From the NCBI GenBank assembly GCA_020725385.1, contig DYFC01000045.1:1-19546 (forward strand): a stretch of 19,546 nt of DNA, in the 5' to 3' direction. Positions 813-19,546 of this stretch are shown here, one piece after another. The notes beneath the pieces were generated by a model that saw nothing but the letters and a program-made list of their open reading frames with translations, was not told where the DNA came from and searched no databases. The stretch comes from Nitrospira japonica (GTDB lineage: Bacteria > Nitrospirota > Thermodesulfovibrionia > Thermodesulfovibrionales > SM23-35). How positions within the stretch are numbered: the stretch's first letter is position 1; each line of letters starts with the position of its first letter. The translations under genes and the position numbers were made by a program.

Positions 813-816
813 CTAT

Positions 817-1525: not shown

Positions 1526-2488
1526 TTACAACCTTTTTTTAATAGTATTAAGTACAGTATCTGAAATCAATTTAACATCACTTATGTTCGTTATATCTAT
1601 CCATGAAATGTCCGCTTCTTTCTTGAACCATGTAAACTGTCTTTTAGCATATCTTTTGGTATTTCTTTTGATTAATCTTATAGCCTCATCAAAAGAGATT
1701 TTTTTATTGAGATACATTATTACCTCTTTATATCCCAATGCCTGTAACGAAGGACATGGAGGCAATGGTTTATCAAAAGAGCTGGAGGAGGAATATATAG
1801 ATTTTTCGATTAGGGAAATTACTCTTTTTACTTCTTCAACAAGTCCTGAAACAATCATATTATCTACACGTTTTTCAATGAGTTGGTAAAGTTCTTTCCT
1901 TTCTCTTGTCAGTCCTATTTTAATAAACTCATACGGTAATGGATTTGTCATGCTTTTTTGAATTTCCGACATTTTAGTATTGCTTTTTAGAAAAACTTCA
2001 ATTGCCCGAATAATTCTCCTTATATCATTTTGAGTGATTTTTGCTGCTGCTTCAGGATCTAAATTTTTAAGATAATTGTATAAAAATCCGTTTTGTTTTT
2101 TTTCCATCTCAATAAGTGACTCTCTAATTGTCCAATCAGCGGAAGGTCCGGAGAATATGCCCCGTGTCATTGCTTTTATATAAAGGCCGGTTCCTCCAAC
2201 GATAATAGGTATTTTATTTTCAATATGCAGATTTTCAATTATCGGTACAACGGTTTTTATATATTTCCCCGTGCTGAAAGTCTCCCATGGATTAACAATA
2301 TCTATCATATGGTGTTTTATTTCAGATAATTGATTCTTGTCAGGTTTTGCTGTCCCAATATCCATGAACCTGTATATCTGCATTGAATCAGCGCTAATTA
2401 TTTCTGTATTTAGTGTTTTTGCGATTGATATTGAGACTTCTGTTTTACCAACGCAAGTAGGTCCAAGCAGGATAATAACTTTATTCAT
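1526..2488 (-). CDS. miaA: tRNA dimethylallyltransferase
   Basis: GPTCVGKT P-loop, DSMQIY, GTAKP, VGGTGLY, YAKRQFTWF. Lies between mutL and hfq. Confidence 0.98.
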   Translation of the reverse strand: MNKVIILLGPTCVGKTEVSISIAKTLNTEIISADSMQIYRFMDIGTAKPDKNQLSEIKHHMIDIVNPWETFSTGKYIKTVVPIIENLHIENKIPIIVGGTGLYIKAMTRGIFSGPSADWTIRESLIEMEKKQNGFLYNYLKNLDPEAAAKITQNDIRRIIRAIEVFLKSNTKMSEIQKSMTNPLPYEFIKIGLTRERKELYQLIEKRVDNMIVSGLVEEVKRVISLIEKSIYSSSSSFDKPLPPCPSLQALGYKEVIMYLNKKISFDEAIRLIKRNTKRYAKRQFTWFKKEADISWIDITNISDVKLISDTVLNTIKKRL

Positions 2489-4161: not shown

Positions 4162-4310
4162 AGAACATTTTAACTTAAAAGTTTCCAAACTTTCAGCTTT
4201 GAAATATTTAAGAATGTAAAAAAATCTCCTTAAACGTGATAAAATTACTTTCTATCTGAAAATGTTTATTTTTATGTATAATTTAGACAGATTCAATTAT
4301 GGAGGTAATT

Positions 4311-5567
4311 ATGGATATAAAATCATTTGTTCACAAAAAGGCATTAGAGGCTAAGGAAGGGGCAAAAGTTCTTGCGAAAGCATCTTCTAAACAGAAGAAT
4401 TCTGTCTTGATTTCTATGGCAGATGCTTTACTAAAAAGAGCAAAAGAGCTTATTGCTGAAAATAAGAAAGATATTAAGTTTGCACAAGATAAAGGTCTTT
4501 CAAAAGCTTTAATTGACAGACTTACACTGACTGATAAAAGAATAAATGAAATGGCTCAGGGGCTTAAGGAAGTTGCCGCACTACCAGACCCTGTCGGTGA
4601 AATAGTAAAAATGTGGCAAAGACCCAATGGTATGACTGTAGGTAAAATGAGAGTTCCTATAGGAGTAATTGGTATTATCTATGAATCCAGACCTAATGTC
4701 ACTGCAGATGCTGCAAGTCTTTGCATGAAAGCAGGGAATTCAGTTCTTCTTAGAGGAGGCTCTGAAGCAATTAATTCAAACAGAGCGATTGTTAAAGTTC
4801 TACGAGATGTTGCAAAAAAAGAAGGACTGCATGAAGGTGTTATTACATTCATTGATATACCTGACAGAGATGCTGTTATGGAAATGCTTAAACTTGAGGG
4901 AATTGTGGATTTGATAATTCCAAGAGGAGGAGAAGCTTTAATAAGAGCGGTAACCGAGAATTCAAGAATTCCAGTGCTTAAACATTATAAGGGTGTGTGC
5001 CATGTGTTTGTTGACAGGGATGCTGACCTTAAAATGGCAGAAGAAATATGTTTTAACGCAAAGGTCCAAAGACCCGGAACATGTAATGCTATGGAGACAA
5101 TGCTGGTAGATAAAAAAATAGCTAAAATATTTTTACCGGTTATGGTTAAAAGATTTAAGGATGCCGGAGTCTTAATAAAAGGTTGCAATCTCTCGAAAAA
5201 AATAGTTCCTTCGATCGAAAAAGTTGAGGATGAAGATTTCTATAAAGAATATCTTGACCTTATTCTTAATGTAAAGATTGTTGATGGAATTGAAGATGCA
5301 ATGGAACATATTGCGCGCTATAGCTCTGCACATTCGGATGCGATTGTCACAAATGATTATGCAAAGGCAATGAGATTTTTAAAGGAAGTTGATTCATCCG
5401 CTGTTTTTGTCAATGCTTCTACAAGGTTAAACGATGGCTTTCAATTTGGTCTCGGCGCTGAAATTGGTATATCTACCGATAAAATACACGCAAGGGGACC
5501 TATGGGTCTTGAGGAATTGACATGTACAAAATTCATTGTTTTCGGGAACGGGCAATTAAGAGAATAA
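4311..5567 (+). CDS. proA: Gamma-glutamyl phosphate reductase (likely start ATG 4311)
   Basis: VPIGVIGIIYESRPNVT, IPRGG, GTCNAMET, HSDAIVT, VNASTRLNDGFQFGLGAEIGISTDKIHARGPMGL. GGAGG at 4301-4305 precedes ATG 4311. Confidence 0.98.
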   Translation: MDIKSFVHKKALEAKEGAKVLAKASSKQKNSVLISMADALLKRAKELIAENKKDIKFAQDKGLSKALIDRLTLTDKRINEMAQGLKEVAALPDPVGEIVKMWQRPNGMTVGKMRVPIGVIGIIYESRPNVTADAASLCMKAGNSVLLRGGSEAINSNRAIVKVLRDVAKKEGLHEGVITFIDIPDRDAVMEMLKLEGIVDLIIPRGGEALIRAVTENSRIPVLKHYKGVCHVFVDRDADLKMAEEICFNAKVQRPGTCNAMETMLVDKKIAKIFLPVMVKRFKDAGVLIKGCNLSKKIVPSIEKVEDEDFYKEYLDLILNVKIVDGIEDAMEHIARYSSAHSDAIVTNDYAKAMRFLKEVDSSAVFVNASTRLNDGFQFGLGAEIGISTDKIHARGPMGLEELTCTKFIVFGNGQLRE

Positions 5568-5604
5568 AAAAACAATAATAGAAGAAATATCTTATAAGGA
5601 GTCC

Positions 5605-6258
5605 ATGAAAGTCGGCATTTTTGGCGGAACTTTTAATCCTATACATTATGGCCATTTAAGAGCTGCAGAAGAGGTCAGGGAATTTCTTGGATTTGATAGA
5701 ATATTATTTGTTCCATCCAAGAAGCCACCTTTAAAATCAAAAGATATCGCTGATCCAAAACACCGCTTTGAGATGGTCAGGCTCGCTATCTCAAACAATT
5801 CTTTTTTCCAGCTTTCAGACATTGAATATAAAATTCCGGGCAAGTCCTATACTGTAAGGACTATCAATGCTCTTAAAAAACAATATCCGGCAACTGAATT
5901 TTATTTTATGCTCGGGACCGATGCTTTTCTTGATATTCCAAACTGGTGGCATCCTGAAGAACTTATCAATCTAACCGATTTTGTAATTCTTCTTAGACCC
6001 GGATTTAGTATCTCCTATCTGAAAAACTCTCCTTTTTTAGACACAAACCTGAAAAAAATTAAAGATTTCGAAAAATCATCCGAAAGACATCTTGAAATCA
6101 GATTAAAGAACGGAAGACAAGCTATTATTCTTAAAATTACGGCCTTTCAAATATCTTCTACCGAAATAAGAAGCCTTATAAAGTTAAACAAAAGCATAAA
6201 ATATCTATTGCCTCAAGATGTGCAATCCTATATAATTAGTAATAAGCTTTATATGTGA
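5605..6258 (+). CDS. nadD: Nicotinate-nucleotide adenylyltransferase
   Basis: GIFGGTFNPIHYGHL, SYTVRT, LGTDAF, ISSTEIR. AAGGAG SD and proA-nadD synteny. Confidence 0.97.
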   Translation: MKVGIFGGTFNPIHYGHLRAAEEVREFLGFDRILFVPSKKPPLKSKDIADPKHRFEMVRLAISNNSFFQLSDIEYKIPGKSYTVRTINALKKQYPATEFYFMLGTDAFLDIPNWWHPEELINLTDFVILLRPGFSISYLKNSPFLDTNLKKIKDFEKSSERHLEIRLKNGRQAIILKITAFQISSTEIRSLIKLNKSIKYLLPQDVQSYIISNKLYM

Positions 6259-6319
6259 GAATTCAAGATAATTTTGAGAAATCTATTTTTTATTTTATAA
6301 AAGAAGGGAGGGAAGGACT

Positions 6320-6670
6320 TTAGAAAGCAAAGATAAGGTTTTAATAGCTGCGAAAGCAGCATCCGAGAAAAAAGCAAAAGATGTTCAAATCCTCGATTTA
6401 CAAAACCTGACCACAATTACAGATTATTTTTTAATCTGTTCAGGAGATAGCATCACTCAGGTTAAAGCAATTCAGGAGCAAATAGAAGAAAAACTAAAAG
6501 AATCAGGGATAAGACCGCAAGGTATTGAAGGATTGAGATATGCTCACTGGGTGCTTATGGACTATGGAGATGTTATAGTACATATTTTTGAGGAAGAAAC
6601 AAGATCTTTTTATGAACTTGAAAAGCTCTGGATTGACGCAAAAAAAAATACTATTGGAGTAAAAGAATAA
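6320..6670 (+). CDS. rsfS: Ribosome silencing factor RsfS (Iojap); absent from the ORF track; start appears non-canonical (TTA 6320)
   Basis: Manual translation gives LESKDKVLIAAKAASEKKAKDVQILDLQNLTTITDYFLICSGDSITQVKAIQEQIEEKLKESGIRPQGIEGLRYAHWVLMDYGDVIVHIFEEETRSFYELEKLWIDAKKNTIGVKE*. It carries the Iojap motifs DYFLICSG, WVLMDYGDVIVHIF and R.FY.LEKLW, and follows nadD. Confidence 0.95.
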   Translation, partial: LESKDKVLIAAKAASEKKAKDVQILDLQNLTTITDYFLICSGDSITQVKAIQEQIEEKLKESGIRPQGIEGLRYAHWVLMDYGDVIVHIFEEETRSFYELEKLWIDAKKNTIGVKE

Positions 6671-6674
6671 ATCC

Positions 6675-8012
6675 ATGAGTAAATTTGGGGTTTTTTTATT
6701 TATCCTGTTTCTGGCAATTCTTGCTCTCTTTGCGATTTATAATCAGAACATAACAATTGTCAAAATCCCTTTTGGCAGTTCTTATGAAACCCCTACTATT
6801 GCGCTTATACTCATGTCAGTTGCAGCGGGTTCATTTGCAATGCTTCTGATTTTTATTATAAGGGACACGAAAAAGTTCGTAGATACATATCAATATCAAA
6901 AAAGACATAAAAGAGATATAAAGATACAGGAATTATACTCAAAGGCTTTGAATTATAATCTTGCACATCATAATAGAACTGAAGCAAAATCATTACTGAA
7001 AGAAATATTGAATGAAAACCCGGAACACTTGAATGCTTTATTACAGCTCGGCAATATTTCAATAACTGAAGAAGATTTTAATCTTGCAAAGGAATATTTC
7101 CAGAGAGCAAAAGAGATAAGTCCAAATAATCTGGATGTACTGTTTTCTTTGGTTCAATTAATGGAAAGAACAGGAAGATTAACCGATTCTATCAGGTATC
7201 TGGATGAAATACTTGATATAGATAGTGAAAATCTCGAGGCTCTCTACAAGAAAAGGGAATTTCTCGAGAGGCTTGAGAGGTGGGATGAGATTGTCCCGGT
7301 TCAAAAGTTGATTCTTAAAAATGAGAATGACCCGAAACTTAAAGCAAGAGAGAGATTAAATCTTGTTGGATATAAATACGAGCAGGGTAGAAATAATCTC
7401 GAGAATAATGAACTTGAAAAAGCCCAGAAGGTCTTCAGGACTGTTTTAAGACTTGAAAGGAATTTTATCCCTGCTACTCTTGGACTTGCTGAAACCCTTC
7501 ATATGAAAGGAAATTCCATTGATGCAGTGAATCTTCTTGAAAAAACATATGAGCAAACCTCTTCAATGATTATACTTTTAAGACTTGAAGATCTTTTAAT
7601 AAGTATCGGTGAACCTTTGAAGTTAATCAGAATATATAAGAACAATATATCAAAGAGTCCGGGTGAAATCGCATATAAATTTCTTCTTGCGAGACTTTAT
7701 TACAGACTTGAAATGATTGATGATGCATTTGATGTAATAACATCTGTAGATATGTCCGGGATTTCAAATCCAGCTATATATCAACTTAGAGGGAATATTT
7801 ATCTGAAAAGAAACCAAATAGAAAAAGCTGTACATGAATTTAAACAGGCATTGGAATCTGATGAATGCGCTCTTGGTCTTCTATACATATGCCACGAATG
7901 CGGGAGCTCGTCATCTAATTGGGATGGCAGATGTTCGAATTGCAAAAGGTGGAATACTTATTACCTTAATCTTTTTACAAGGGAGTTGCCTGAAATTGGA
8001 AGAAAAGTATAA
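6675..8012 (+). CDS. LapB-like TPR protein with a LapA-like two-TM N-terminus and a C-terminal rubredoxin-type metal site
   Basis: Two N-terminal hydrophobic segments separated by NQNITIVKIPFG (LapA-like), several TPR-like helices (ENPEHLNALLQLGN, AKEISPNNLDVL), and C-terminal CHECG...WDGRCSNCKRWNT. Confidence 0.8.
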   Translation: MSKFGVFLFILFLAILALFAIYNQNITIVKIPFGSSYETPTIALILMSVAAGSFAMLLIFIIRDTKKFVDTYQYQKRHKRDIKIQELYSKALNYNLAHHNRTEAKSLLKEILNENPEHLNALLQLGNISITEEDFNLAKEYFQRAKEISPNNLDVLFSLVQLMERTGRLTDSIRYLDEILDIDSENLEALYKKREFLERLERWDEIVPVQKLILKNENDPKLKARERLNLVGYKYEQGRNNLENNELEKAQKVFRTVLRLERNFIPATLGLAETLHMKGNSIDAVNLLEKTYEQTSSMIILLRLEDLLISIGEPLKLIRIYKNNISKSPGEIAYKFLLARLYYRLEMIDDAFDVITSVDMSGISNPAIYQLRGNIYLKRNQIEKAVHEFKQALESDECALGLLYICHECGSSSSNWDGRCSNCKRWNTYYLNLFTRELPEIGRKV

Positions 8013-10467
8013 TCCTCAAACAGTTGAGTTAAAATGGCAAAATTATTGGGCAGAAAAAAATCTTCATAAAACAGAGTTGTCTGCCAGAAAACAAAATTTC
8101 TATTGTCTTGAAATGTTTCCTTATCCATCAGGCGAGATACACATGGGTCATGTAAGGAACTACTCCATTGGAGATGTTATCGCAAGATATAAAAAAATGC
8201 GTGGTTTTAATGTGTTGCATCCTATGGGATGGGACTCTTTTGGCCTTCCTGCTGAAAATGCTGCGATTAAACATAATGTGCATCCTTCGGACTGGACTTA
8301 TAAAAATATAGAAAAAATGAAAAGTCAGCTTAACAGAATGGGATTTAGTTATGACTGGGAAAGAGAAGTAACAACATGTAATCCTGAATATTATAAATGG
8401 AATCAGTGGTTTTTTTTGAAGATGCTCGAGAAAGGGCTTGCGTATCGTAAATATTCTTATGTTAACTGGTGTCCTTCCTGTGCAACAGTTCTTGCAAATG
8501 AACAGGTAATAGATGAAAAATGCTGGCGTTGCGATAGCCTTGTGGTACAGAAGAAACTTGAGCAGTGGTTCTTTAAGATAACAAAATATGCAGAAGAGCT
8601 TTTACTTGGTTGCGATGAACTTACTGGCTGGCCTGAAAGAGTTGTGCTTATGCAGAAAAACTGGATCGGAAAGGGAGAAGGAGTAGAGGTTGATTTTGAG
8701 ATTGAAGGAACTGAAGAGAAATTAAGAATTTTCACAACAAGACCTGATACTTTGTTTGGAGTGACTTTTATGTGTGTGGCGCCCGAACATCCGGTCCTCG
8801 AAAAAATGCTTTCCGATATGAGCGCTCTTGAATCACTCAAATCAAAGTATGGAAAGGAGACCGAGAAAATCGGATTTTTTACAGGTTATTACGCGATTAA
8901 TCCAATGAATGGTGATAGAGTTCCGGTATATGCTGCAAATTTTGTGCTTATGGAATATGGAACAGGTGCGATTATGTCTGTTCCTGCTCATGACCAGCGT
9001 GATTTCGAATTTGCAGAAAAATATAATCTGCCTGTTAAGGTAGTGATAATTCCGGAAGAAAAATTTGATTTAAGTAATCCCGAATCTATGGTCTTGAATG
9101 AAGCTTATGAAGAAGAAGGAATTCTTGTTAATTCAGGCCAATTTACCGGTATGGATAGCAGAAAAGCAAAACAGGAAATTATGAAATATATTGAGGAGAA
9201 GAATCTTGGCAAGAGAGTTGTCAATTATAAACTTCGTGATTGGGGCATATCAAGGCAGAGATACTGGGGCACACCCATACCAGTAATTTATTGTGATAAA
9301 TGTAGTGTTGTACCTGTTCCTGAAAAAGATTTGCCTGTAATACTTCCTGAAAATATAAAAATAACAGGTAAAGGCAGTTCCCCTTTGCTTGAATTAGAAG
9401 AATTTTTAAACACTAAATGCCCGAAGTGCGAAGCAAATGCAAGGCGTGAAACCGATACAATGGATACTTTTGTAGATTCATCATGGTATTTCATAAGGTA
9501 CTGCTTTAAGAAAGGAGATATTGATTTATATTCTGAACTTAAATCTCCTGATTCTGAGTTTAACAAATGGATGCCTGTTGACCAGTATATCGGTGGTGTT
9601 GAACACGCTGTTTTACATCTTCTTTATTCACGCTTTTTTACACGGGTTATTAGAGATTTGGGACTTATTAATATAAGCGAGCCTTTTCAGAATCTTCTAA
9701 CCCAGGGAATGGTTATAAAAGATGGCGCAAAGATGTCTAAATCAAAAGGAAATGTAGTTGATCCTAATTATCTGATTGAAAAATATGGTGCGGATACATC
9801 AAGACTTTTCTCCCTTTTTGCTGCTCCTCCTGAAAAAGACCTTGACTGGTCTGACAAAGGTGTTGATGGAGCATATAGATTCTTAAATAGATTATGGAAT
9901 ATTGTTTTCAAATATCACCAAAGATTTCAAAGTCAGACAAAATGGCAGATAAAGAGCATATCCGATCTTCAACCTTCTACTGTTCCGTTATACAGGAAAG
10001 CACATCAAACCATAAAAAAAGTCACAACAGATATTGAAAGAGAATATCATTTTAACACTGCCATTGCATCATTGATGGAACTCGTAAATGAAATATCTGC
10101 ATTTGAGCCTGATTCAGAGGAAAAACTTGAAGTTTTACGTTTTGCGATTGAAGCGCTTCTTTTGCTTTTGTCTCCATTTTCTCCCCATATCGCAGAAGAA
10201 TTATGGGAAGCGATTGGGAATAAACCGAGCATATTCGAACAGAAATGGCCTGAATGGGATGAAGTAGCTGCAAAAGAGGAACAGATAGAACTTGTTGTGC
10301 AGGTCAACGGAAAAGTCCGTTCAAAGATTATGATTAATGCAGGTATATCTGATGATGAAATTGAAAAAGTAGCGCTCGAAGACCGAAAGATAAAGGAGAT
10401 AATAGGGGGCAAAACTATAAAAAAGATCTTAATTGTGAAGGGAAAACTCGTAAATATAGTTATCTAA
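7996..10467 (+). CDS. leuS: Leucine--tRNA ligase (likely start TTG 7996)
   Basis: MFPYPSGEIHMGH, TTRPDT and GTGAIMSVPAHDQRD (CP1 editing domain), RDWGISRQRYWG, KMSKS. (M)EEKYNPQTVELKWQ is the usual N-terminus, with AGGGAG at 7980-7985. Confidence 0.98.
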   Translation: MEEKYNPQTVELKWQNYWAEKNLHKTELSARKQNFYCLEMFPYPSGEIHMGHVRNYSIGDVIARYKKMRGFNVLHPMGWDSFGLPAENAAIKHNVHPSDWTYKNIEKMKSQLNRMGFSYDWEREVTTCNPEYYKWNQWFFLKMLEKGLAYRKYSYVNWCPSCATVLANEQVIDEKCWRCDSLVVQKKLEQWFFKITKYAEELLLGCDELTGWPERVVLMQKNWIGKGEGVEVDFEIEGTEEKLRIFTTRPDTLFGVTFMCVAPEHPVLEKMLSDMSALESLKSKYGKETEKIGFFTGYYAINPMNGDRVPVYAANFVLMEYGTGAIMSVPAHDQRDFEFAEKYNLPVKVVIIPEEKFDLSNPESMVLNEAYEEEGILVNSGQFTGMDSRKAKQEIMKYIEEKNLGKRVVNYKLRDWGISRQRYWGTPIPVIYCDKCSVVPVPEKDLPVILPENIKITGKGSSPLLELEEFLNTKCPKCEANARRETDTMDTFVDSSWYFIRYCFKKGDIDLYSELKSPDSEFNKWMPVDQYIGGVEHAVLHLLYSRFFTRVIRDLGLINISEPFQNLLTQGMVIKDGAKMSKSKGNVVDPNYLIEKYGADTSRLFSLFAAPPEKDLDWSDKGVDGAYRFLNRLWNIVFKYHQRFQSQTKWQIKSISDLQPSTVPLYRKAHQTIKKVTTDIEREYHFNTAIASLMELVNEISAFEPDSEEKLEVLRFAIEALLLLLSPFSPHIAEELWEAIGNKPSIFEQKWPEWDEVAAKEEQIELVVQVNGKVRSKIMINAGISDDEIEKVALEDRKIKEIIGGKTIKKILIVKGKLVNIVI

Positions 10468-10479
10468 TTAAGGTATAAT

Positions 10480-11022
10480 ATGAAAATGAAAAATTTGGTT
10501 AAGAATGAGATTAGTTATCAAACACAAAAAATTTTTTGTTTTTTATTCCTGATTTTAATTATCTTCTTTTCACAGTTTTCGGGATGCGGATATGCAATAC
10601 ATAAAAAATCCGAACTACCATTCGATGCGATTCAGATAACAAGAATTGAGAATAAGACTCTTGAGCCAAAACTTCAGGACAGACTTTATAATGCAATAAC
10701 TGCAGAGTTTCTTAAACAGGGAATATCTGTACAGAAAAATACCGGTTATAAACTCAATGGAACAATTAAGAAGTTTGAATTAAAGGTTCTTTCCGAGAAA
10801 TCTGACGTAGCAGTTGAGTATGAAGTCACGATTATAGGTGATTTTAAACTTATTGACCCTGATGGAAAGACAAAAGAGTTCAAAAATATCGGTTCTCCTT
10901 TTATTGTTTCCTTTTCTGGAACAGGACTTTTAAATGAGCTAATAGCAAATAAAGAGAATATTACAGAAAAAGCTGTAAAAGACATGGCAGCAGATATTGT
11001 TGCAACCATTATCTATAGATGA
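10480..11022 (+). CDS. lptE: LPS assembly lipoprotein LptE family
   Basis: Hydrophobic signal with lipobox FSG-C-GY, 'ENKTLEPKLQDRL' pattern, and classic leuS-lptE-holA synteny. Confidence 0.82.
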   Translation: MKMKNLVKNEISYQTQKIFCFLFLILIIFFSQFSGCGYAIHKKSELPFDAIQITRIENKTLEPKLQDRLYNAITAEFLKQGISVQKNTGYKLNGTIKKFELKVLSEKSDVAVEYEVTIIGDFKLIDPDGKTKEFKNIGSPFIVSFSGTGLLNELIANKENITEKAVKDMAADIVATIIYR

Positions 11023-11933
11023 GCTATCAAACATTCTTAAATGAGATAGAAAAAGGTTTGCCATCACAAGTCTATTTGTTTTATTCTTCAGATTCATTCC
11101 TTATTAGAGAAGCAATAGAAGCTATTAAGAAAATTGTTCCTGAAAATGATATGGACTTTAATTTCCATATATATGATCTTTCAGATGAAGAAGTTCCTTC
11201 AATCCAACAAATTTTAGATGTTACAAATACTTTTTGTTTTTTTAATGGCCGGAGATTTACATTATTAAGTGGCAATCTTTTGAAAATTTCAAAAAAAGAC
11301 ATTGAAAAACTTAATGCATATATTTCATCCCCTGCGCCCTCGTCGGTATTAATACTACTTCATAATGGGACTGTTAAAAAAGATGCTTTAGAAAAGTTCG
11401 GGGTTAAGAAAATTATATCCCTTGATATAAAAGAACAGGATATACCTGAATGGATTAAGAAACGCATAAAAATAAAAGAGCTTGAAATTTCTGATGATGC
11501 AGTTAGTTGTTTAATAGCCAGTTCAGGAACAGATCTTGGACTTCTTGCATCCGAAATAGAAAAGATTTCAATGCTGGGGAAAAAGAAGATAACTTATAAT
11601 GATATTTCGGATATTCTTGCCGGAGGCAGATTATATAATGTTTTTGACCTTGTTTATGCTATTAGCGCAAAAAATCCTGATAAGGTCTTTAAAATCTACA
11701 AAAGCCTCAGAGAAACGATTGACGATTATAGTCTTATAGGAGCACTTAACTGGCAATATGGCAGAAGCATTCCGGCTAATAAAAATGAAGAAGGAAGCAG
11801 CCTCTCATTTAAGATATTTGAACTTTTAAACAAAGTTGATATTGATATAAAAAGCTCTGGAAGAAACTTTCCTGTTGAATATCTTCTTATTAAGCTGCTC
11901 CGGCTTCAGGTAGATCGGGTTTCTGTAAAATAG
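11019..11933 (+). CDS. holA: DNA polymerase III delta subunit
   Basis: VYLFYSSDSFL N-terminus, GTDLGLLASEIEKI, NVFDLVYAI. Lies between lptE and a convergent rpsT, with an ATGA overlap with lptE. Confidence 0.9.
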   Translation: MSYQTFLNEIEKGLPSQVYLFYSSDSFLIREAIEAIKKIVPENDMDFNFHIYDLSDEEVPSIQQILDVTNTFCFFNGRRFTLLSGNLLKISKKDIEKLNAYISSPAPSSVLILLHNGTVKKDALEKFGVKKIISLDIKEQDIPEWIKKRIKIKELEISDDAVSCLIASSGTDLGLLASEIEKISMLGKKKITYNDISDILAGGRLYNVFDLVYAISAKNPDKVFKIYKSLRETIDDYSLIGALNWQYGRSIPANKNEEGSSLSFKIFELLNKVDIDIKSSGRNFPVEYLLIKLLRLQVDRVSVK

Positions 11934-12204
11934 CATTAACCTTCTTTGAAAGACGTGATATCTTTCTTGAAGCAGTGTTTTTATGAAGAACACCCTTTGA
12001 TGCTGCCTTGCTTATAGCTTTTATCGCATTTTTAAGCTCGTTTACTGATTCCTCAATGTTTTTTGCCGAGATAGCAGCCTCTACTTTTTTAACAATATTC
12101 TTAATAGATGTTTTAATAGATCTGTTCTTAAGATTTCTTTTTTCAGCCTGCCTTGCTCTTTTCATAGCAGACAGATTTTTCTTTGGTCTTGCTTTTGCTG
12201 GCAA
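11890..12204 (-). CDS. rpsT: 30S ribosomal protein S20 (TTG start)
   Basis: SAMKRARQAEKRNLKNRSIKT...KAASKGVLHKNTASRKISRL. GGAGG SD 7 nt before the TTG. Confidence 0.97.
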   Translation of the reverse strand: MPAKARPKKNLSAMKRARQAEKRNLKNRSIKTSIKNIVKKVEAAISAKNIEESVNELKNAIKAISKAASKGVLHKNTASRKISRLSKKVNAILQKPDLPEAGAA

Positions 12205-12293
12205 CTCAAATCCTCCTTTTTATATGAAAATAAATAATAACATAGAATACGGTAATAAAATCAACATTTTTTTAAAAATGGGACAGTCAGGAA

Positions 12294-12782
12294 TCATATT
12301 TCTGCTTCTATACTAAGTATCCGGTAATTCGATGGATTATTTTTTATCTTTTCTAACATTTTTTCGGAAACCCAATGAGAATCCTCTTCGAGATTATAGA
12401 AATAGGTATCTATTCCAAAAAAACCATCCATGAAATGTGTGATGACATGCAACATCTTGGTCTTGTATCCCTGAGGCAAAGCTATTATATCATCAAGACT
12501 TGAAATATTCTCTGATTTTATTTCCTCTGATAACTCGTAAATTATCTGACGGTTTTTTGAAATAGCTGCCTGTAACCTTTCATCAAAATTCCTATCTGTC
12601 GCAGAAATGGCAGAAGATTCGAGCATATTAATATTTGAATAACGGACAAGTTGATAGCGCTCAAAAAAAATCAAGACCCGTTTTTTTGCTGACTCAAAGT
12701 CAAAGCCTTTTACAAGAATCTCATGATAATATCTTGATTTTCCGAGATCGAGCTCTCTTGATAAAATATCATGTGTTTTCAT
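12294..12782 (-). CDS. Hypothetical protein
   Basis: 162-aa ORF filling the gap, with globular composition and a motif-like segment HFMDGFFGIDTYFYNLEEDSHW. No family recognised. Confidence 0.75.
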   Translation of the reverse strand: MKTHDILSRELDLGKSRYYHEILVKGFDFESAKKRVLIFFERYQLVRYSNINMLESSAISATDRNFDERLQAAISKNRQIIYELSEEIKSENISSLDDIIALPQGYKTKMLHVITHFMDGFFGIDTYFYNLEEDSHWVSEKMLEKIKNNPSNYRILSIEAEI

Positions 12783-12944
12783 TGTATTTAATATTTTATA
12801 TTAAATGTATTTGAAAAAGAAATTTTACTGCAACATCTGTGTTATTGTAACTGCATTTTCGGGGTTGAGCAATGTATGTATTTCGTATTAAAGATTTGGG
12901 ATATATGCGAAAAATTGTTTTATATTATGTTAATATGTATGACT

Positions 12945-13889
12945 ATGAACAAAATAAAACCTATTTCTTTGAATAAGGTTAAGACATTTTCGATCATGAA
13001 TAGAAGAAGTAAAGTTTCTCTAATATCACAGGCTTCTGTTTTCAATAAAGGGCAGACATTCAAAGTATTTATCGAAAAACTGCCCGATATTCTTGCTGCA
13101 AGGGATTTTAAATCTGTAGTAGATTCTATAGTTTTAGCCAGGAATAAGAATAAACATGTAGTTCTGGGCATGGGAGCGCATCCTATAAAAGTTGGCCTTT
13201 CCCCTTTAATTATTGATTTAATGCAAAAAAGAGTTATTACTGCTCTGGCAACAAACGGAGCATGTATAATTCATGACTTTGAGCTGTCTTTTATAGGAAG
13301 AACTTCCGAAGATGTTGCAAAAGAGATTTTATCTGGTTCATTCGGGATGGCTAAAGAAACAGGCGTTTATCTTAACAAAGCAATAAAAAAGGGCATTAAA
13401 TACGGTAAAGGCATAGGTGAATCAGTCGGTGAAATGATTTATAAAAGTAAATTCCGGTTCAAAGAACATAGTATTTTTGGTAATGCTTTTAATATGAACA
13501 TACCTGCAACGGTACATGTTGCAATTGGCACCGACATAATACATATGCATCCGGAAACCGATGGTCAGGCAATAGGCTCGGGAAGTTTTACAGACTTTAA
13601 AATACTCACTTCGGTTGTTTCTGACCTTGAAGGAGGCGTTTACATAAATCTCGGCTCTGCAGTAATTCTTCCTGAGGTTTTTCTAAAAGCTCTGACATTA
13701 GCAAGAAATCTCGGGCATAAGGTTGAAAATATAACAACAATTAATATGGATTTCATTCAACATTACAGACCATCTGTGAATGTGTTGCATAGACCTACAT
13801 TGAATAAAGGCAATTCATACGCATTAACAGGACATCATGAAATAATGTTCCCTCTTCTTGCTGCTGCTGTTATTGAAAGAATAGGTTGA
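12945..13889 (+). CDS. Conserved protein with a deoxyhypusine-synthase-like fold (start uncertain: 12939/12945 more likely than 12876)
   Basis: MGAHPIKVGLSPLIIDLM, ATNGACIIHDFE, TSEDV, FGMAKETG, HVAIGTDIIHMHP, NLGSAVILPEVFLK, GHHEIMFPLL. The layout resembles DHS-like NAD-binding proteins (inference). Confidence 0.65.
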   Translation: MNKIKPISLNKVKTFSIMNRRSKVSLISQASVFNKGQTFKVFIEKLPDILAARDFKSVVDSIVLARNKNKHVVLGMGAHPIKVGLSPLIIDLMQKRVITALATNGACIIHDFELSFIGRTSEDVAKEILSGSFGMAKETGVYLNKAIKKGIKYGKGIGESVGEMIYKSKFRFKEHSIFGNAFNMNIPATVHVAIGTDIIHMHPETDGQAIGSGSFTDFKILTSVVSDLEGGVYINLGSAVILPEVFLKALTLARNLGHKVENITTINMDFIQHYRPSVNVLHRPTLNKGNSYALTGHHEIMFPLLAAAVIERIG

Positions 13890-13912
13890 GTTTTGTCTCT
13901 GTGCTTTAATTC

Positions 13913-14344
13913 ATGAAATACTTCCAGAAATTAAAAGCCCTTATAATAAACTTTACCAAAAAGGGTATGACCCCGCATGAAATCTCAATCGGGTTTGCTG
14001 TTGGAATACTTGTAGCTTTTGTGCCTGTTTTTGGAACGCATACTATTATAGCCTTGAGTCTTTCGGCTATTTTCAGACTAAATCCCATAATTGTTTTATT
14101 ATCCACTCAGGTTTCAAATCCAATCACTTATCCGTTTCAATTATTCATATGTGCTGAAGTAGGTAATATAATTCTAAAGGGATATTTACTTGAAATTACA
14201 TTTTCAAAAGACGTTAATTTACTATCCCATTATCTCTGGCCAATTGTTATAGGAAGTGTCATTCTCGGTATCCCGGCTTCATCGGTTTCTTATTTTCTTC
14301 TAAAATGGATTCTTAATAAACGTCAAAAGAAAGATAAAAATTGA
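13913..14344 (+). CDS. DUF2062-family membrane protein
   Basis: TPHEISIGFAVG...P.FGTHT...RLN...VSNPIT pattern with several TM segments. Confidence 0.85.
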   Translation: MKYFQKLKALIINFTKKGMTPHEISIGFAVGILVAFVPVFGTHTIIALSLSAIFRLNPIIVLLSTQVSNPITYPFQLFICAEVGNIILKGYLLEITFSKDVNLLSHYLWPIVIGSVILGIPASSVSYFLLKWILNKRQKKDKN

Positions 14345-14432
14345 TCTGGTAACGGGCCTTTAAACTCTCGAATAATGCATTTTTTCTGGCTAATTTTTGT
14401 TTTAAAATAGAAAATATTTCTGTAAAAATATT

Positions 14433-14441
14433 TGATATAAT
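14433..14441 (+). promoter_or_regulatory. Extended -10 promoter element for asnS
   Basis: TG-A-TATAAT about 45 nt upstream of the asnS ATG. Confidence 0.55.
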
Positions 14442-14486
14442 TTACACAGTCATTTTGAATGAATTTCAACCTTTAAAGGGAACATT

Positions 14487-15872
14487 ATGGAAAGATTATT
14501 AATTAAAGACGTGTTGTCAGACAAATTTATAGGCAAGCAGGTTATAGTCTGCGGCTGGATACGCACGAAGCGAGAATCGAAAGATTTTGCTTTTCTAATA
14601 ATTAGTGATGGTTCAACTCAGGATACTCTTCAGGTTGTAATTCCACATGAAGCTAATTGTTCCGAGCAAATCCAAAAATGTAATACCGGAGCATCTGTAA
14701 AAATAAAAGGATTCCTGAGGGAATCTCCGGCAAAAGGCCAGAGATATGAAGTGGAAGCACAAGAAATTGAAGTTATCGGGGAGTCTGACCCGGCAAAATA
14801 TCCCCTTCAGAAAAAAGGTCATACCCTTGAATTTCTCAGGGAGATAAGCCATCTCAGACCGCGCACGAATACTTTCGGAGCTATATTCAGAATTAGAAAT
14901 GTTCTTGCAAATGCGGTTCATAATTTTTTCCAGGATAGAGGATTTTTATGGGTTCATACTCCGATAATTACTTCGAGTGACTGTGAGGGAGCGGGAGAAC
15001 TATTTTCTGTAACTACTTTTGATTTTAAGAATATTCCCCGAAAAGATGATGTGGTAGATTTTTCTCAGGATTTTTTTGGCAAACCTGCGTATCTAACTGT
15101 TAGCGGTCAGCTTGAAGCTGAATTTCTTGCCTTATCACTTGGAAATGTCTATACATTCGGCCCGACTTTCAGGGCTGAAAATTCCAATACTACGAGGCAT
15201 CTTTCAGAATTCTGGATGATAGAGCCAGAAATGGCATTCGCGGATTTAAAGGATGACATGAAAATGGCAGAAGATTTTTTGCGCTATTTATTCAAAGAAG
15301 TTACCTTAAAATGTGAGAAAGAACTTTTATTTCTTCAAAATCAATATAAAAGAATTTCGCCGGATGAAATTTCAAAACTTTCAGATATTGCCTTTACACA
15401 TATTACATATACCGAGGCAATCAATGAACTTAAAAAATCCAAAGAGAATTTTCAATTTCCGGTTGATTGGGGGAATGATCTCCAGTCCGAACATGAAAGA
15501 TATATAACTGATAAAGTCATAGGAGGACCTGTAATAGTAACTGATTATCCAAAGGACATTAAGGCATTTTATATGAGGCTTAATGATGATGAAAAAACAG
15601 TTGCTGCAATGGATGTGCTTGTACCAAAGGTTGGCGAAATCATAGGTGGAAGCCAGCGCGAAGAAAGACTTGAAATCCTTGAAGAAAGGATGAGAAAAAC
15701 AGGTATTTCCATTGATAATCTTCAGTGGTATCTTGATCTTAGAAGGTTTGGGTCGGTTCCTCATGCCGGTTTTGGCTTGGGTTTTGAAAGGCTTGTGCAA
15801 TATATTACCGGTATGATTAATATAAGAGATGTTATACCATGCCCGAGAACACCCGGCGAAATCGGATTTTGA
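14487..15872 (+). CDS. asnS: Asparagine--tRNA ligase
   Basis: OB-fold start (GWIRTKR...DGS), YPLQKK, HLRPRTN, LTVSGQLEAE, FRAENSNTTRHLSEFWMIEPE, DLQSEHERY, PHAGFGLGFERL. Confidence 0.97.
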   Translation: MERLLIKDVLSDKFIGKQVIVCGWIRTKRESKDFAFLIISDGSTQDTLQVVIPHEANCSEQIQKCNTGASVKIKGFLRESPAKGQRYEVEAQEIEVIGESDPAKYPLQKKGHTLEFLREISHLRPRTNTFGAIFRIRNVLANAVHNFFQDRGFLWVHTPIITSSDCEGAGELFSVTTFDFKNIPRKDDVVDFSQDFFGKPAYLTVSGQLEAEFLALSLGNVYTFGPTFRAENSNTTRHLSEFWMIEPEMAFADLKDDMKMAEDFLRYLFKEVTLKCEKELLFLQNQYKRISPDEISKLSDIAFTHITYTEAINELKKSKENFQFPVDWGNDLQSEHERYITDKVIGGPVIVTDYPKDIKAFYMRLNDDEKTVAAMDVLVPKVGEIIGGSQREERLEILEERMRKTGISIDNLQWYLDLRRFGSVPHAGFGLGFERLVQYITGMINIRDVIPCPRTPGEIGF

Positions 15873-15934
15873 ATTATCCTAAATACATTATTTGAATCAA
15901 GTCTGATGTTTCCCTCCTTACCTTTTCATGTTGT

Positions 15935-15955
15935 AAGAGCAATATCTGCTTTTTT
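15935..15955 (+). terminator. Weak possible intrinsic terminator after asnS
   Basis: AAGAGCA-ATATC-TGCTTTT hairpin running into a T-tract. The stem is short and weak. Confidence 0.3.
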
Positions 15956-15965
15956 CGGCACTATA

Positions 15966-15974
15966 TGCTACAAT
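15966..15974 (+). promoter_or_regulatory. Extended -10 promoter element for atpZ-atpI-pgi
   Basis: TG-C-TACAAT just upstream of the AAGGA SD and ATG 15991. Confidence 0.5.
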
Positions 15975-15990
15975 TTATCAAAGGAAATTT

Positions 15991-16233
15991 ATGGCACTCT
16001 TTAATAAAGAATTTATGCAGGCATGGGTTGTGGGACTGAACCTTGTAATTTCCACAGTTGTTGGACTTGCAATGGGAATAGGTCTTGATTATTTAATGGA
16101 AAAATGGTTTGGCTGGAATACAAGACCATGGTTAACTGTAATTTTCTTGATTTTCGGTATAATAGCTGGATTCAAAGATCTATATATGATGGCTAAAAAG
16201 CAGAATGATCAATCTAATAAAAAAAGTTCATAG
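15991..16233 (+). CDS. AtpZ/AtpI family small membrane protein (ATPase gene 1)
   Basis: GLNLVISTVVGLAMGIGLD...T.PWLTVIFLIFGIIAGFKDLY, the typical AtpZ pattern with two TM helices. Confidence 0.88.
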   Translation: MALFNKEFMQAWVVGLNLVISTVVGLAMGIGLDYLMEKWFGWNTRPWLTVIFLIFGIIAGFKDLYMMAKKQNDQSNKKSS

Positions 16234-16591
16234 ACAGGCATTGATTTTTCTGATTATATTTGCAGCAGTTTCAACATTTATTACTGCATTTGCTTCTCTT
16301 GGTGACTGGAGAAAAATGCCACACAGCGTATTGATTGGTGGGTTACTCGGGTTAGCGAATTTCAAAGGCCTCGCATGGGGGCTAAAAGATTTCGCTATCC
16401 AGCAAAGACCAACAGGAAAATTAATCTTCTGGAGCATGGTGAGATTCTTTATTCTTGCTGCTATACTGGTAGTGCTTGCATTGCTTAAGTTGATAAATTT
16501 TATCGGAATTTTAATTGGCTTAACTGTTGTTTTTGCATTAATAATAAAAGAAGGTTATCGGGAAGTTAAACAACAATCTGAAAAAATTTAA
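16205..16591 (+). CDS. ATP synthase subunit I-like membrane protein
   Basis: Four TM helices with SVLIGGLLGLANF and 'VRFFIL...INFIGILIGL'. Overlaps the atpZ-like gene. Confidence 0.78.
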   Translation: MINLIKKVHRQALIFLIIFAAVSTFITAFASLGDWRKMPHSVLIGGLLGLANFKGLAWGLKDFAIQQRPTGKLIFWSMVRFFILAAILVVLALLKLINFIGILIGLTVVFALIIKEGYREVKQQSEKI

Positions 16592-16611
16592 CCAAAAATG
16601 TGAGGTAACCA

Positions 16612-17952
16612 ATGATAAGCATTGATTATTCAAACATGATGGAAGAATATATCGGGAGCAAAGGACTTTCAAACCTTTCAATCAATAACATCTCACCACA
16701 AATAGAAAAAGCTTACAAAATGATAGCAAACAGGGAATGGAAGCAACTTGAATTTATTGACCTGCTTTCTCAGGATACCGCTGAAATCAAAAAAGCCGGC
16801 AGATATATAAAAAAATCTGCTGATAACTTCTTATTGCTCGGGATAGGCGGTTCAGCACTTGGTCCAAGAGCTATTCTTGAAGCTTTAAGCCCTTTTCACA
16901 ATCTTAAGAAAAGACCCAGGGTCTTTATTTATGATAATGTTGACCCGCGTACACTCAAGAACCTGCTCTCGATAATTGATTTGAAGAAGACTTTCATAAA
17001 CGTAATTTCAAAATCAGGAAGCACAGCAGAAACAGCTGCATCTTTTCTTATTCTCTGGGATAAAATGAAAAGGATTCTCGGCAAGGATGCTTCAAAACGA
17101 TTTGTAATTACAACTGACCCTGAAAAAGGAAGCCTGAGAAAAATCGCAAATGATGAAAAAATACTTACATTGCCGGTACCGCCTAATGTTGGCGGAAGAT
17201 ATTCGGTTTTAAGCCCTGTTGGTCTCCTAACTGCTGAAGTTACCGGAATCGACTGTAATGAACTTTTGAGGGGAGCATCCGATATAAAATCAATTTGTTT
17301 AAATAATGATGTATATAAAAATCCAGCCCTTTTGTTTGCGACACTTCTTTTTTTAATGGATAAAGAAAAAAACAGACATATTAATGTAATGGTGCCCTAT
17401 ATGGATAGTCTGAAGTTTTTATCCGAATGGTTCTGTCAATTATGGGCAGAAAGTCTCGGTAAGGAAAACAAAGGTCTTACTCCTTATCCTTCACTTGGAA
17501 CAACTGATCAGCATTCTCAATTACAACTATGGATAGAAGGGCCACCGGATAAGGTTATCTTTTTCATAAGAGTTGATGATTTCGGTACAGATATAAAAAT
17601 CCCTGCGGTATTCAAAAACATTGAAGGATATAATTATCTTTCCGGACATACATTAAAAGAGCTCATTAACTCCGAACAGGAAGCTACCGAACTTGCATTG
17701 ACAAAAGCAGGAAGGCCGAACTTTACAATAACTGTTCCTCAGATAAATGCATATTATCTTGGACAATTGTTTTTCTTTTTTGAGATGGCAACAGCTTTTG
17801 CCGGTGCTTTGCTTGAAGTAAATCCTTTTGACCAGCCGGGTGTTGAAGAAGGCAAGAATTTGACTTATGGAATGATGGGTAAAAAAGGTTTTGAAGAAAA
17901 GAAAAAAGAAGTTGATGAATATAGAAAGAACAAAGGAAAGTGGAGGATTTAA
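16612..17952 (+). CDS. pgi: Glucose-6-phosphate isomerase
   Basis: GIGGSALG, ISKSGSTAET, VGGRYSVLS, QLWAESLGK, DQHSQLQ, PFDQPGVEEGK. Confidence 0.97.
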   Translation: MISIDYSNMMEEYIGSKGLSNLSINNISPQIEKAYKMIANREWKQLEFIDLLSQDTAEIKKAGRYIKKSADNFLLLGIGGSALGPRAILEALSPFHNLKKRPRVFIYDNVDPRTLKNLLSIIDLKKTFINVISKSGSTAETAASFLILWDKMKRILGKDASKRFVITTDPEKGSLRKIANDEKILTLPVPPNVGGRYSVLSPVGLLTAEVTGIDCNELLRGASDIKSICLNNDVYKNPALLFATLLFLMDKEKNRHINVMVPYMDSLKFLSEWFCQLWAESLGKENKGLTPYPSLGTTDQHSQLQLWIEGPPDKVIFFIRVDDFGTDIKIPAVFKNIEGYNYLSGHTLKELINSEQEATELALTKAGRPNFTITVPQINAYYLGQLFFFFEMATAFAGALLEVNPFDQPGVEEGKNLTYGMMGKKGFEEKKKEVDEYRKNKGKWRI

Positions 17953-17954
17953 CA

Positions 17955-17972
17955 ATTTATCGCAAGATAAAT
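17955..17972 (+). other. Perfect hairpin/inverted repeat just after the pgi stop (terminator-like or operator)
   Basis: ATTTATC-GCAA-GATAAAT: 7-bp stem with a GNRA loop. Confidence 0.35.
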
Positions 17973-18015
17973 CCCTATATTTTATATGTCATATATTTTA
18001 AGATGAGGAGGGAAT

Positions 18016-18705
18016 GTGAAGAATAAAAAACTGAAGAAAAAGGTTATGTGTTATTCCTCAATTGCTGCCGGCGCGCTTGCAATAGCAGGACAGGCAGAAG
18101 CAGCGGTTGTTTATAGCGGACCGCAGAATATTGTTGTAAATGCAAGTAATCCATTTGCAAGTATTGATCTTGATAATAATACTGTTCCTGATTTTGTTAT
18201 ATTTAATTATTATTATAATTATAATACTATAGCCCGAGCTCATATAATTTTTGGAAATCCATATAACAGTGCTTTTATGATTAATGAACAAGTTACTACA
18301 ACATCCCCTCCATTAATGGTTGTTAATATCCCTGCCAATTATACTGTTAAAAGTACTCTTGCAACAGGAAGACAATGGTTTTCTGTTGGTATTCTTGATG
18401 CTTATTATAAAGGTACCGGTTATGGTAATTTCTTAGGAACAACAGGTTATATTGGCGTGAGATTCAACGCGGCTTGTGGAACTGCTTATGGCTGGATACA
18501 ATATAGCTCTAATAATGATGCAACAGTTGGAACAATCATAGATTGGGCATATGAAAATACATGCCGGCCAATAAGAGCGGGTGATAAAGGTCAACAGGTT
18601 GCGGTACCTGCATTTACACCAGCAGGGATTGCAGTTGCAGCAGGTCTTCTATCAGGAGCAGGCTTAAGGGCGTTAAGGAAAAGGAAAAAAGAGGGGAAAA
18701 AATAA
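18016..18705 (+). CDS. Secreted/surface protein, paralog 1, with a C-terminal VPAFT-TM-basic sorting-like tail
   Basis: GTG start after GAGGAGG, signal peptide ending AEA|A, DLDNN..PDF loop, YIGVRF...YGWIQ...IIDWAYE...I.AG, and tail VAVPAFTPAGIAVAAGLLSGAGLRALRKRKK. Confidence 0.9.
   Translation: MKNKKLKKKVMCYSSIAAGALAIAGQAEAAVVYSGPQNIVVNASNPFASIDLDNNTVPDFVIFNYYYNYNTIARAHIIFGNPYNSAFMINEQVTTTSPPLMVVNIPANYTVKSTLATGRQWFSVGILDAYYKGTGYGNFLGTTGYIGVRFNAACGTAYGWIQYSSNNDATVGTIIDWAYENTCRPIRAGDKGQQVAVPAFTPAGIAVAAGLLSGAGLRALRKRKKEGKK
18034..18135 (+). repeat. 5' direct repeat, copy 1 (signal-peptide region); copy 2 at 18866-18967
   Basis: Manual alignment: 102 nt, 8 mismatches, no gaps. Confidence 0.9.
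18592..18690 (+). repeat. 3' direct repeat, copy 1 (sorting-tail region); copy 2 at 19448-19546
   Basis: Manual alignment: 99 nt, 4 mismatches, first 57 nt identical. Confidence 0.92.
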
Positions 18706-18784
18706 GGAACAGTTTTTCTCCTTCCCATGGCTTGTTATCCTTAACCTGCTGGTGATGTCACAACCTGATGATTGGGTACTTTAA

Positions 18785-18813
18785 TTGACAAATGATAAAT
18801 TTCCTTTTATACT
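18785..18813 (+). promoter_or_regulatory. Near-consensus sigma70 promoter for paralog 2
   Basis: TTGACA (18785-18790), 17 nt spacer, TATACT (18808-18813), 31 nt upstream of ATG 18845. GGGGGA SD. Confidence 0.8.
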
Positions 18814-18844
18814 TTCTTTTAATTTTTAAAAAATGGGGGAATTT

Positions 18845-19546
18845 ATGAATAAAAGTAAGGAGTTAAAGAAAAAGTTTATGTGTTATTCATCAATTGCTGC
18901 CGGAGCGCTTGCAATAGCAGGGCAGGCAGAAGCTGCGGTTGTTTATAGCGGGCTACAGAATATTGTTCATGACACAGCAAACACAATTCGGTGGATTGAT
19001 TTAAATAACGATGGGACAAATGACTTTGGTTTCCGTTATGTTTATACTACTACTTATTATGGTAATGTTAATAGAAGGTTCGATTTCGATTTAGTATATA
19101 ATAATTATTATAATCAACATATAGATAACAGTTTACATCAAGATCCTGCACGCTTACCGAGTGGATATTTGATACAGCCTAATCTTCCTAATCAACCGGC
19201 ATTTTATTGGGATTATGAAAATTATGACACTTTAGGTACATATTCTGGTAAAGCTAGTGAAGGTGTTTTTAGGGGTCAAAGTGGATATATAGGTGTTCGT
19301 TTTCAGAGTCAGACCTGTAATGGTTCAAATTATCATTATGGCTGGATACAGTTTAGTTTGAATAATAATGCCACTTCCGGGACTATAATAGACTGGGCAT
19401 ATGAGACAAATTGTAATCAATCTATAATGGCAGGTGATACTGGTCAACAACAGGTTGCGGTACCTGCATTTACACCAGCAGGGATTGCAGTTGCAGCAGG
19501 TCTTTTATCAGGAGCAGGCATAAGGGCATTGAGGAAAAGGAAAAAA
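18845..19546 (+). CDS. Secreted/surface protein, paralog 2; absent from the ORF track; stop codon lies beyond the window end
   Basis: Manual translation, open for 234 codons: MNKSKELKKKFMCYSSIAAGALAIAGQAEAAVVYSGLQNIV...IDLNNDGTNDF...GYIGVRFQSQTCNGSNYHYGWIQF...GTIIDWAYETNCNQSIMAGDTGQQQVAVPAFTPAGIAVAAGLLSGAGIRALRKRKK. Confidence 0.92.
   Translation, partial: MNKSKELKKKFMCYSSIAAGALAIAGQAEAAVVYSGLQNIVHDTANTIRWIDLNNDGTNDFGFRYVYTTTYYGNVNRRFDFDLVYNNYYNQHIDNSLHQDPARLPSGYLIQPNLPNQPAFYWDYENYDTLGTYSGKASEGVFRGQSGYIGVRFQSQTCNGSNYHYGWIQFSLNNNATSGTIIDWAYETNCNQSIMAGDTGQQQVAVPAFTPAGIAVAAGLLSGAGIRALRKRKK
18866..18967 (+). repeat. 5' direct repeat, copy 2
   Basis: Matches 18034-18135 at 94/102 nt. Confidence 0.9.
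19448..19546 (+). repeat. 3' direct repeat, copy 2 (runs to the window end)
   Basis: Matches 18592-18690 at 95/99 nt. Confidence 0.92.

Follow-up and report, generated by a model that had tools for sequence, protein, structure and literature searches.

Two neighbouring secreted-protein genes in Nitrospira japonica with divergent cores and near-identical ends, probably kept alike by gene conversion

Why should two adjacent genes be nearly identical in DNA at both of their ends and yet differ widely in between? The question is raised by contig DYFC01000045.1 of Nitrospira japonica (assembly GCA_020725385.1). We analysed the entire contig, positions 1-19546 (the window); its last 1.5 kb carries two genes of one unnamed protein family, both on the + strand. 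An earlier note on this DNA had proposed either that the ends are homogenised by recombination or gene conversion, or that they act as recombination handles for swapping cores in a possible cassette array that gives a diversifying surface-protein repertoire. We favour, at a probability of about 0.68, the view that the genes are old paralogs whose ends are targeting signals kept alike by local gene conversion, and whose cores are not swapped.

The first gene (copy 1; 18016-18705, + strand) is a complete open reading frame (ORF) of 229 amino acids with a GTG start and the sequence GGAGG just 5′ of it; its product consists of a signal peptide, an all-beta domain and a C-terminal sorting tag, all three predicted. 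The second (copy 2; + strand) is a 3′-open ORF from 18833 to beyond 19546, with 238 visible amino acids, and is cut by the contig end. Its true start is likely the ATG at 18845 (MNKSKEL...), because the alignment with copy 1 places it there and GGGGGA lies just upstream. Each copy has its own start codon and ribosome-binding site, and a promoter-like site is also present 5′ of copy 2 (TTGACA-17-TATACT, 18785-18813, + strand; 11/12 in a consensus scan, a pattern match alone). No terminator-like site was found in a scan of the spacer between the copies. The hidden Markov model (HMM) of the family matches copy 1 with an E value of 4.7e-89 and copy 2 with 1.1e-96.

A repeat search of the window located the shared ends, all on the + strand. 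The 5′ repeat (18019-18135 in copy 1 and 18851-18967 in copy 2) is 117 nucleotides (nt) long and 87% identical; it covers the putative signal peptide (approximately residues 1-29, with cleavage placed between AGQAEA and AVVYSG) and the first mature residues. The 3′ repeat (18592-18690 and 19448-19546) is 99 nt long and identical at 95/99 positions (96%). It opens with a perfect run of 57 nt that starts at the first base of both copies, and encodes QQVA-VPAFTPAG (the motif lies at 18604-18627 in copy 1 and at 19460-19483 in copy 2), a hydrophobic helix and the basic cluster RALRKRKK. The repeat stops at 19546 with the contig, and the window thus ends within the tail of copy 2, as the earlier note had seen. 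In the codon alignment the signal stretch (LKKK..QNIV) is identical at 95/105 nt, where 94/102 had been counted before, and the tail at 92/96 nt. The near-identity of the ends is therefore real.

Over their whole length the two proteins share 124 of 239 residues in a BLASTP alignment (52%, E 9e-58). The description of the core as barely alignable holds for its N-terminal half, in which 24 of 96 aligned codons encode an identical residue (~25%), but not for its C-terminal half, which holds the conserved module GYIGVRF..YGWIQ..TIIDWAYE with 26/37 residues identical between the copies. The YGWIQ...TIIDWAYE part of the module lies at 18484-18560 in copy 1, with its counterpart at ~19334-19410 in copy 2 (both + strand), and a further repeat pair covers it (18486-18554 and 19336-19404; 69 nt, 78% identical). 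Residues W160, I161, D176, W177, A178, Y179 and E180 of the module are invariant across 26 sequences. The reported richness of the core in Tyr and Asn was borne out: Tyr makes up 8.6% and 11.4% of the two variable halves, compared with 3.3% in the 14 other window proteins, and Asn 13.3% and 12.4%, compared with 5.1%. The G+C content of the window is 34.8%.

The likeness of the ends extends to synonymous sites. In the codon alignment the proportion of synonymous differences (pS) was 0.11 in the tail (3 of 26.7 sites) and 0.31 in the signal, compared with 0.65 in the variable half of the core and 0.855 in the conserved module, so that synonymous divergence is strongly non-uniform along the genes. 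Where the copies have the same residue and its codons are degenerate, the same codon is used at 28/31 positions in the tail and at 26/32 in the signal, compared with 9/24 in the module (Fisher's test against the module: p = 4.5e-5 for the tail, p = 1.8e-3 for the signal). The module controls for codon bias, because it is taken from the same two genes. These values uphold that part of the earlier note which took the ends to be homogenised by recombination or gene conversion, and the tail has been homogenised more recently than the signal.

We compared both tails with the corresponding sequence outside this genome. Among 45 related loci taken from a genome contig collection, the best of which is 40% identical, only one (L006, the 3′ end of relative P0010) has the tag type of the window. 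Its tail uses the same codon at 11/23 positions shared with copy 1 and at 12/23 shared with copy 2, no higher than in the module plus linker (17/25 and 18/31, respectively). The synonymous divergence of the tail between genomes is thus ordinary; there is therefore no sign of nucleotide-level constraint, and the homogeneity is a within-genome property.

Phylogenies of cores and ends tell the same story. In the core tree (163 columns) copy 1 falls with P0002-P0006 (subtype A) and copy 2 with P0007-P0011 (subtype B), each group with support of 100/99, and a clade of copy 1 plus copy 2 is rejected by the approximately unbiased (AU) test (p-AU 0.0004). In core identity, copy 1 stands closer to P0002 (74%) than to copy 2 (37%), while copy 2 is 82% identical to P0008. 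The tree of the ends (67 columns) disagrees with the core tree: it splits by tag type, joining P0006 of subtype A and P0011 of subtype B (100/99) against ten PALTPAG-type proteins. The signal of copy 1 shares 94% of its residues with subtype B proteins but 66-86% with those of its own subtype A, and the residues MC, as well as the F of PAFTP, occur otherwise only in subtype B relatives. Judged from these alignments, the two copies are ancient paralogs, one of each subtype, and gene conversion between neighbouring genes would be the simplest process to account for the homogeneity of their ends.

Other tandem pairs of the family indicate how general this pattern is. A pair in Opitutales (L026) shows it as well, with the same codon at 11/12 tail positions, whereas in three further pairs (L009, L021 and L045) the tails are conserved in protein only (same codon at 4/11, 4/13 and 2/13, respectively). 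Conversion is therefore occasional in the family and not the rule. Two more pairs, L004 and L019, are recent whole-gene duplicates.

What are the constant ends? By inspection, the N-terminal repeat appears to encode a Sec-type signal peptide, with a K-rich start, a hydrophobic helix at residues 4-24 and a cleavage site, placed by eye, between AEA and A. An AlphaFold2 model of copy 1, built from an alignment of 26 sequences (mean predicted local distance difference test (pLDDT) score 83.8; predicted template modelling score 0.73), has a helix at 4-24, twelve strands within 31-180, mostly at pLDDT > 90, and a helix at 202-227. In the 26-protein alignment Y13 of the leader is invariant and A17, A18, L21, A27 and A29 are nearly so, and YSG..N at the mature N terminus is invariant. 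Conservation of the leader is far above what is usual for signal peptides, and similar leaders occur in members from Planctomycetota and Bacteroidota. At the extreme C terminus, VPAFTPAG is followed by IAVAAGLLSGAGL and then by RALRKRKK, which together form a three-part tag. Matches of the ends to ETRAMP, Myco_arth_vir_N and LPXTG models were set aside, as they are below cutoff and fall on K-rich or hydrophobic stretches.

The three-part tag is like IPTL-CTERM (TIGR04174 / PF18203), the C-terminal signal associated with exosortase H (TIGR04177), in its proline motif, hydrophobic helix and terminal basic cluster. Relatives with the same core carry the bona fide tag and exceed the curated IPTL-CTERM cutoff of 20.5 bits (P0006, 29.3; P0011, 31.5; P0013, 34.4; P0019, 34.2 bits). 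In one locus an exosortase H gene (L001:10720-11223; 91.6 bits, cutoff 86) lies directly 3′ of an IPTL-CTERM family gene (L001:10001-10708), and is followed by a gene for an exosortase H-associated membrane protein (L001:11162-11761; 48.3 bits, cutoff 35). Another locus has a small gene of the exosortase family (L018:4628-5167, - strand) that falls short of the subtype cutoffs. From these similarities, the tag [VI]PA[LF]TPAG of the window and its close relatives would be a lineage-specific, divergent derivative of IPTL-CTERM.

The favoured explanation can then be set out as a pathway. The mature part would be a beta-rich domain of ~160 residues in a small secreted protein, which would be exported by Sec, anchored by its C-terminal helix and then cleaved or transferred by an exosortase-family enzyme, so that the domain would reach the cell surface or the matrix. 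The family proteins may plausibly act at the surface or in a coat. The ends would be constant at the protein level because a signal peptide and an exosortase-type sorting tag must fit shared machinery. Conversion between the neighbours would be confined to the only stretches still alike enough to recombine, and the cores would differ through the age of the duplication and not through core swapping.

Several observations weigh against this explanation. The signature motif of IPTL-CTERM is IPTLxxWG, and its positions are visible in the alignment of the relatives; VPAFTPAG keeps only the P and the final G and has neither T-L nor W-G. The IPTL-CTERM matches of copy 2 (13.5 bits) and copy 1 (8.4 bits) are sub-threshold, and close PALTPAG-type relatives score 12.8-17.2 bits or have no match, all below 20.5. 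Strict membership of IPTL-CTERM thus fails both on score and on motif. No exosortase gene is present in the 19.5-kb window (Pfam scan of 17 proteins), and an exosortase-family gene was found in the flanks of only 2/45 loci, in one tblastn search with a single query that could miss distant ones. In the tree of the ends, monophyly of the type A proteins is only marginally rejected (p-AU 0.0425), and the test does not reject a tree in which copy 1 stays with P0002-P0005 (p-AU 0.3), the protein-level signal of the ends being weak. The split of that tree could also result from parallel co-evolution of the tags with a changed sorting enzyme. Finally, the contig probably stems from the assembly of a metagenome, and a mis-join at the 57-nt run is possible.

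One alternative is programmed diversification, in which the ends would serve as handles for moving cores between an expression site and additional copies past the end of the contig, producing a coat that varies by phase or antigenically. It too would accommodate ends homogenised at synonymous sites and the conflict between end and core trees, and the contig does stop inside a repeat. The closest relative of copy 2, P0008, is 86% identical to it, does not differ from it in the residues of signal and tail, and sits on a different contig, of 122,554 bases. For four of the nine closest relatives the only known contigs are 1.0-1.7 kb long, and a family gene is truncated where the contig stops in 8/45 loci (L006, L019, L022, L024, L028, L033, L040 and L041). 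The contig breaks and P0008 are consistent with assemblies that broke at repeats, and perhaps with a third copy; assemblies that are simply fragmentary could explain them too. Known cassette systems such as pilE/pilS and vlsE have a single gene that is expressed and numerous partial cassettes that are silent and lack promoters. The window is like them in that its variable centres have conserved flanks and its copies probably recombine, but unlike them it has two full genes with old, stable core lineages. The two copies seen are both complete, and one has a promoter-like site of its own. When the family HMM was run on six-frame ORFs of the 45 loci, it found two genes in 12 of them and three or more in none, and nearly all loci with several kb on both sides hold a single family gene. 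(The three HMM matches in L043 are pieces of one frameshifted gene, not three copies.) Unlike shuffled cassettes, the cores fall into two stable lineages that split deeply and have relatives 70-82% identical, and no recombinase or invertase occurs among the 17 window proteins, whose named Pfam matches are all housekeeping. The recombination handles, cassette array and diversifying repertoire suggested by the earlier note are thus unsupported, and we consider programmed diversification unlikely.

Could the ends have remained alike with no recombination at all, through purifying selection that acts on the targeting signals or the nucleic acid itself, together with genome codon bias, and with tags that changed in parallel with the enzyme? 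The ends are indeed conserved in protein across many genomes, their tree splits by tag type, and the tails of the L009, L021 and L045 pairs, conserved in protein but not at synonymous sites, indicate that protein constraint alone does operate in the family. This explanation is nevertheless improbable, as the tail far exceeds the equally conserved module in shared codons, and the synonymous divergence of the tail between genomes is ordinary. An assembly artefact, with the contig chimeric or collapsed and joined at the tail that both copies share, would make the tandem or the mosaic ends unreal. The contig ends 42 nt past the 57-nt perfect repeat and begins within a partial tRNA. Against an artefact, the tails differ at 4/99 positions, and copy 1 continues to its own stop after EGKK and into a unique spacer. 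Read by eye, the alignment of the 5′ repeat shows perfect runs of at most ~17 nt, too short to mislead an assembler, and tandem pairs are present in 12/45 independent loci. We regard this possibility as very unlikely.

The rest of the window holds housekeeping genes. Those with a name encode SurA-like, NUDIX, MiaA, MutL, LapB, LeuRS, LptE, HolA, AsnRS and PGI proteins; LptE, LapB and the SurA-like protein serve outer-membrane biogenesis and therefore indicate a diderm organism. Three ORFs have no Pfam match at E <= 1e-5: 12294-12782 (- strand, 162 amino acids), 12876-13889 (+ strand, 337 amino acids) and 16205-16591 (+ strand, 128 amino acids). A partial tRNA at 1-80 (- strand), cut by the contig start, was detected with Rfam (39 bits) and was not called by ARAGORN; Rfam found nothing else in the whole window. 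With the tRNA at the start and the repeat at the end, both contig ends therefore lie in repeated or multi-copy sequence.

The two genes belong to a large family. Searches of Pfam and NCBIfam returned no model for the core (residues ~30-195) at E values as high as 10, and a Foldseek comparison of the model with the PDB gave no matches at E <= 0.001 (best TM-score 0.17). Among 5.8 billion proteins we found 63 relatives, many of which carry PF18203 (IPTL-CTERM), some PF07589 (PEP-CTERM) and one a tail for type IX secretion. When 1.84 billion cluster representatives were searched with a profile, 7,616 matched at E <= 0.001, some of the weakest perhaps only through the hydrophobic ends, 1,935 at <= 1e-10 and 110 at <= 1e-30. 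The Atlas neighbours of P0011 are all clusters named 'hypothetical protein', with the same range of tags. A tblastn search with copy 1 of plasmid and phage collections gave no match.

Across the 45 loci the same N-terminal module is joined to several C termini. Family genes end in IPTL-CTERM in Nitrospirota, deltaproteobacterial lineages and Opitutales, in PEP-CTERM in Verrucomicrobiota and Planctomycetota, in a type IX secretion C-terminal domain in Bacteroidota, and in FNWNLFLPA in Desulfocapsa-like genomes; endings of yet other kinds are also present. In the Desulfocapsa-like loci L007, L011, L012, L015, L017 and L027, a tail of the form FNWNLFLPA(I/M)..G..K replaces the motif-helix-basic tag, and may be another, unnamed C-terminal signal. 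In L043 the family gene (9947-10705) is spread over three overlapping frames, either as a frameshifted pseudogene or through sequencing errors.

A second protein accompanies the family. A gene for a very conserved protein of ~930-970 amino acids lies 23-571 bp from the family gene or genes in 22/45 loci, and in L038 it sits between two family genes, which brings the total to 23/45. In L006 it adjoins the family gene, starting 40 bp after it (L006:277-3066, + strand). Other examples are L001:6608-9421, L004:5145-7964, L010:1314-4157, L016:2402-5245, L020:1315-4137, L025:6807-9713 and L003:10764-13616 (- strand), with 15 further loci. The protein combines an N-terminal type I phosphodiesterase/nucleotide pyrophosphatase domain, tetratricopeptide repeats (TPR) and a weak Sulfotransfer_3 match with an LPRSGTS loop. 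Its mean column identity is 63% over 16 sequences and, by inspection, it is without a signal peptide. The N-terminal domain weakly matches solved nucleotide pyrophosphatases and phosphonoacetate hydrolase (E ~4e-5), and a profile of the C-terminal domain matches cytosolic sulfotransferases in the PDB (E ~0.004). Identification as a tyrosylprotein sulfotransferase was rejected: that enzyme matches only over the loop that binds 3′-phosphoadenosine-5′-phosphosulfate (E 0.07-0.2), and the single sequence matched nothing. The gene occurs beside family genes with any type of tag, in Nitrospirota, deltaproteobacterial lineages, metagenome-assembled genomes labelled Pseudomonadota, Verrucomicrobiota and Planctomycetota (in the last two the match spans only ~700 residues), and near none of the family genes in the 8 Bacteroidota loci. 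It is not inside the window; it may lie just beyond 19546, since L006 has it 40 bp after the family gene. A search of the literature found no paper that combines exosortase, sulfotransferase and tetratricopeptide. A distinct ORF of ~150-176 amino acids without a Pfam or NCBIfam match also recurs near family genes, in six loci (L001:9370-9897, L025:13029-13499, L026:2122-2583, L019:1656-2114, L004:8938-9381 and L016:6133-6576; tblastn E 5e-27 to 1.5e-8).

This association allows a more speculative and rather doubtful proposal, in which the family proteins would be dedicated clients of the cytoplasmic enzyme. The enzyme would dock on the unusually conserved leader (K/R..L..Y-S..A-A-G..L-A) and modify the Tyr-rich beta domain ahead of Sec export; exosortase sorting would then build a coat. 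In the lineage of the window, ends kept identical by conversion would allow a single pathway to serve at least two core types, and, on the pattern of L006, additional copies and the enzyme gene would follow a short way past the contig end.

How does the arrangement compare with described sorting systems? The PEP-CTERM study (Haft 2006, PMC1569441) describes proteins that have a signal peptide and a tag with little other homology, and ascribes the greater likeness of the tags within than between species to recent paralogous expansion. The window shares with that system, which is sorted by exosortase (EpsH), the setting of secreted proteins in a diderm, a tag at the C terminus, scarcity of recognisable homology, within-species likeness of the tags and paralogy, and some members of the family carry PEP-CTERM itself. 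The window differs in its motif, in that its within-genome likeness is traced to synonymous sites and includes the signal peptide, and in that two paralogs are visible and not dozens. For IPTL-CTERM, a single literature search returned only a paper on the S-layer protein mela_00855 of Methylomirabilis lanthanidiphila (PMC8671808), which mentions the tag and reports just one BLAST relative of the protein. Since that paper describes an S-layer protein, the 'S-layer-like coat' of the earlier note is a fair guess. A search for exosortase H / XrtH returned nothing relevant: one paper listed contains the phrase 'exosortase homologue', and the others, judged by title, are on unrelated subjects.

By analogy with these systems, the main explanation is one of ordinary biology, in that the arrangement would work as exosortase-sorted proteins do; constant ends around divergent cores would be accounted for by shared targeting signals and local conversion. 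Other loci that look cassette-like can be checked in the same way, by comparing synonymous sites of the ends with those of a conserved internal module. What is new here is modest: a large unnamed family, its divergent tag and its conserved enzyme partner. The family has no Pfam or NCBIfam model and no fold match in the PDB, carries at least four kinds of C-terminal anchor, and includes, in the window, a derivative of IPTL-CTERM that current curated models miss. The pairing of family gene and enzyme across phyla is a testable lead to the function of both and, if the family proteins are clients of the enzyme, the two would represent an undescribed pathway of modification plus sorting that extends across at least five phyla.

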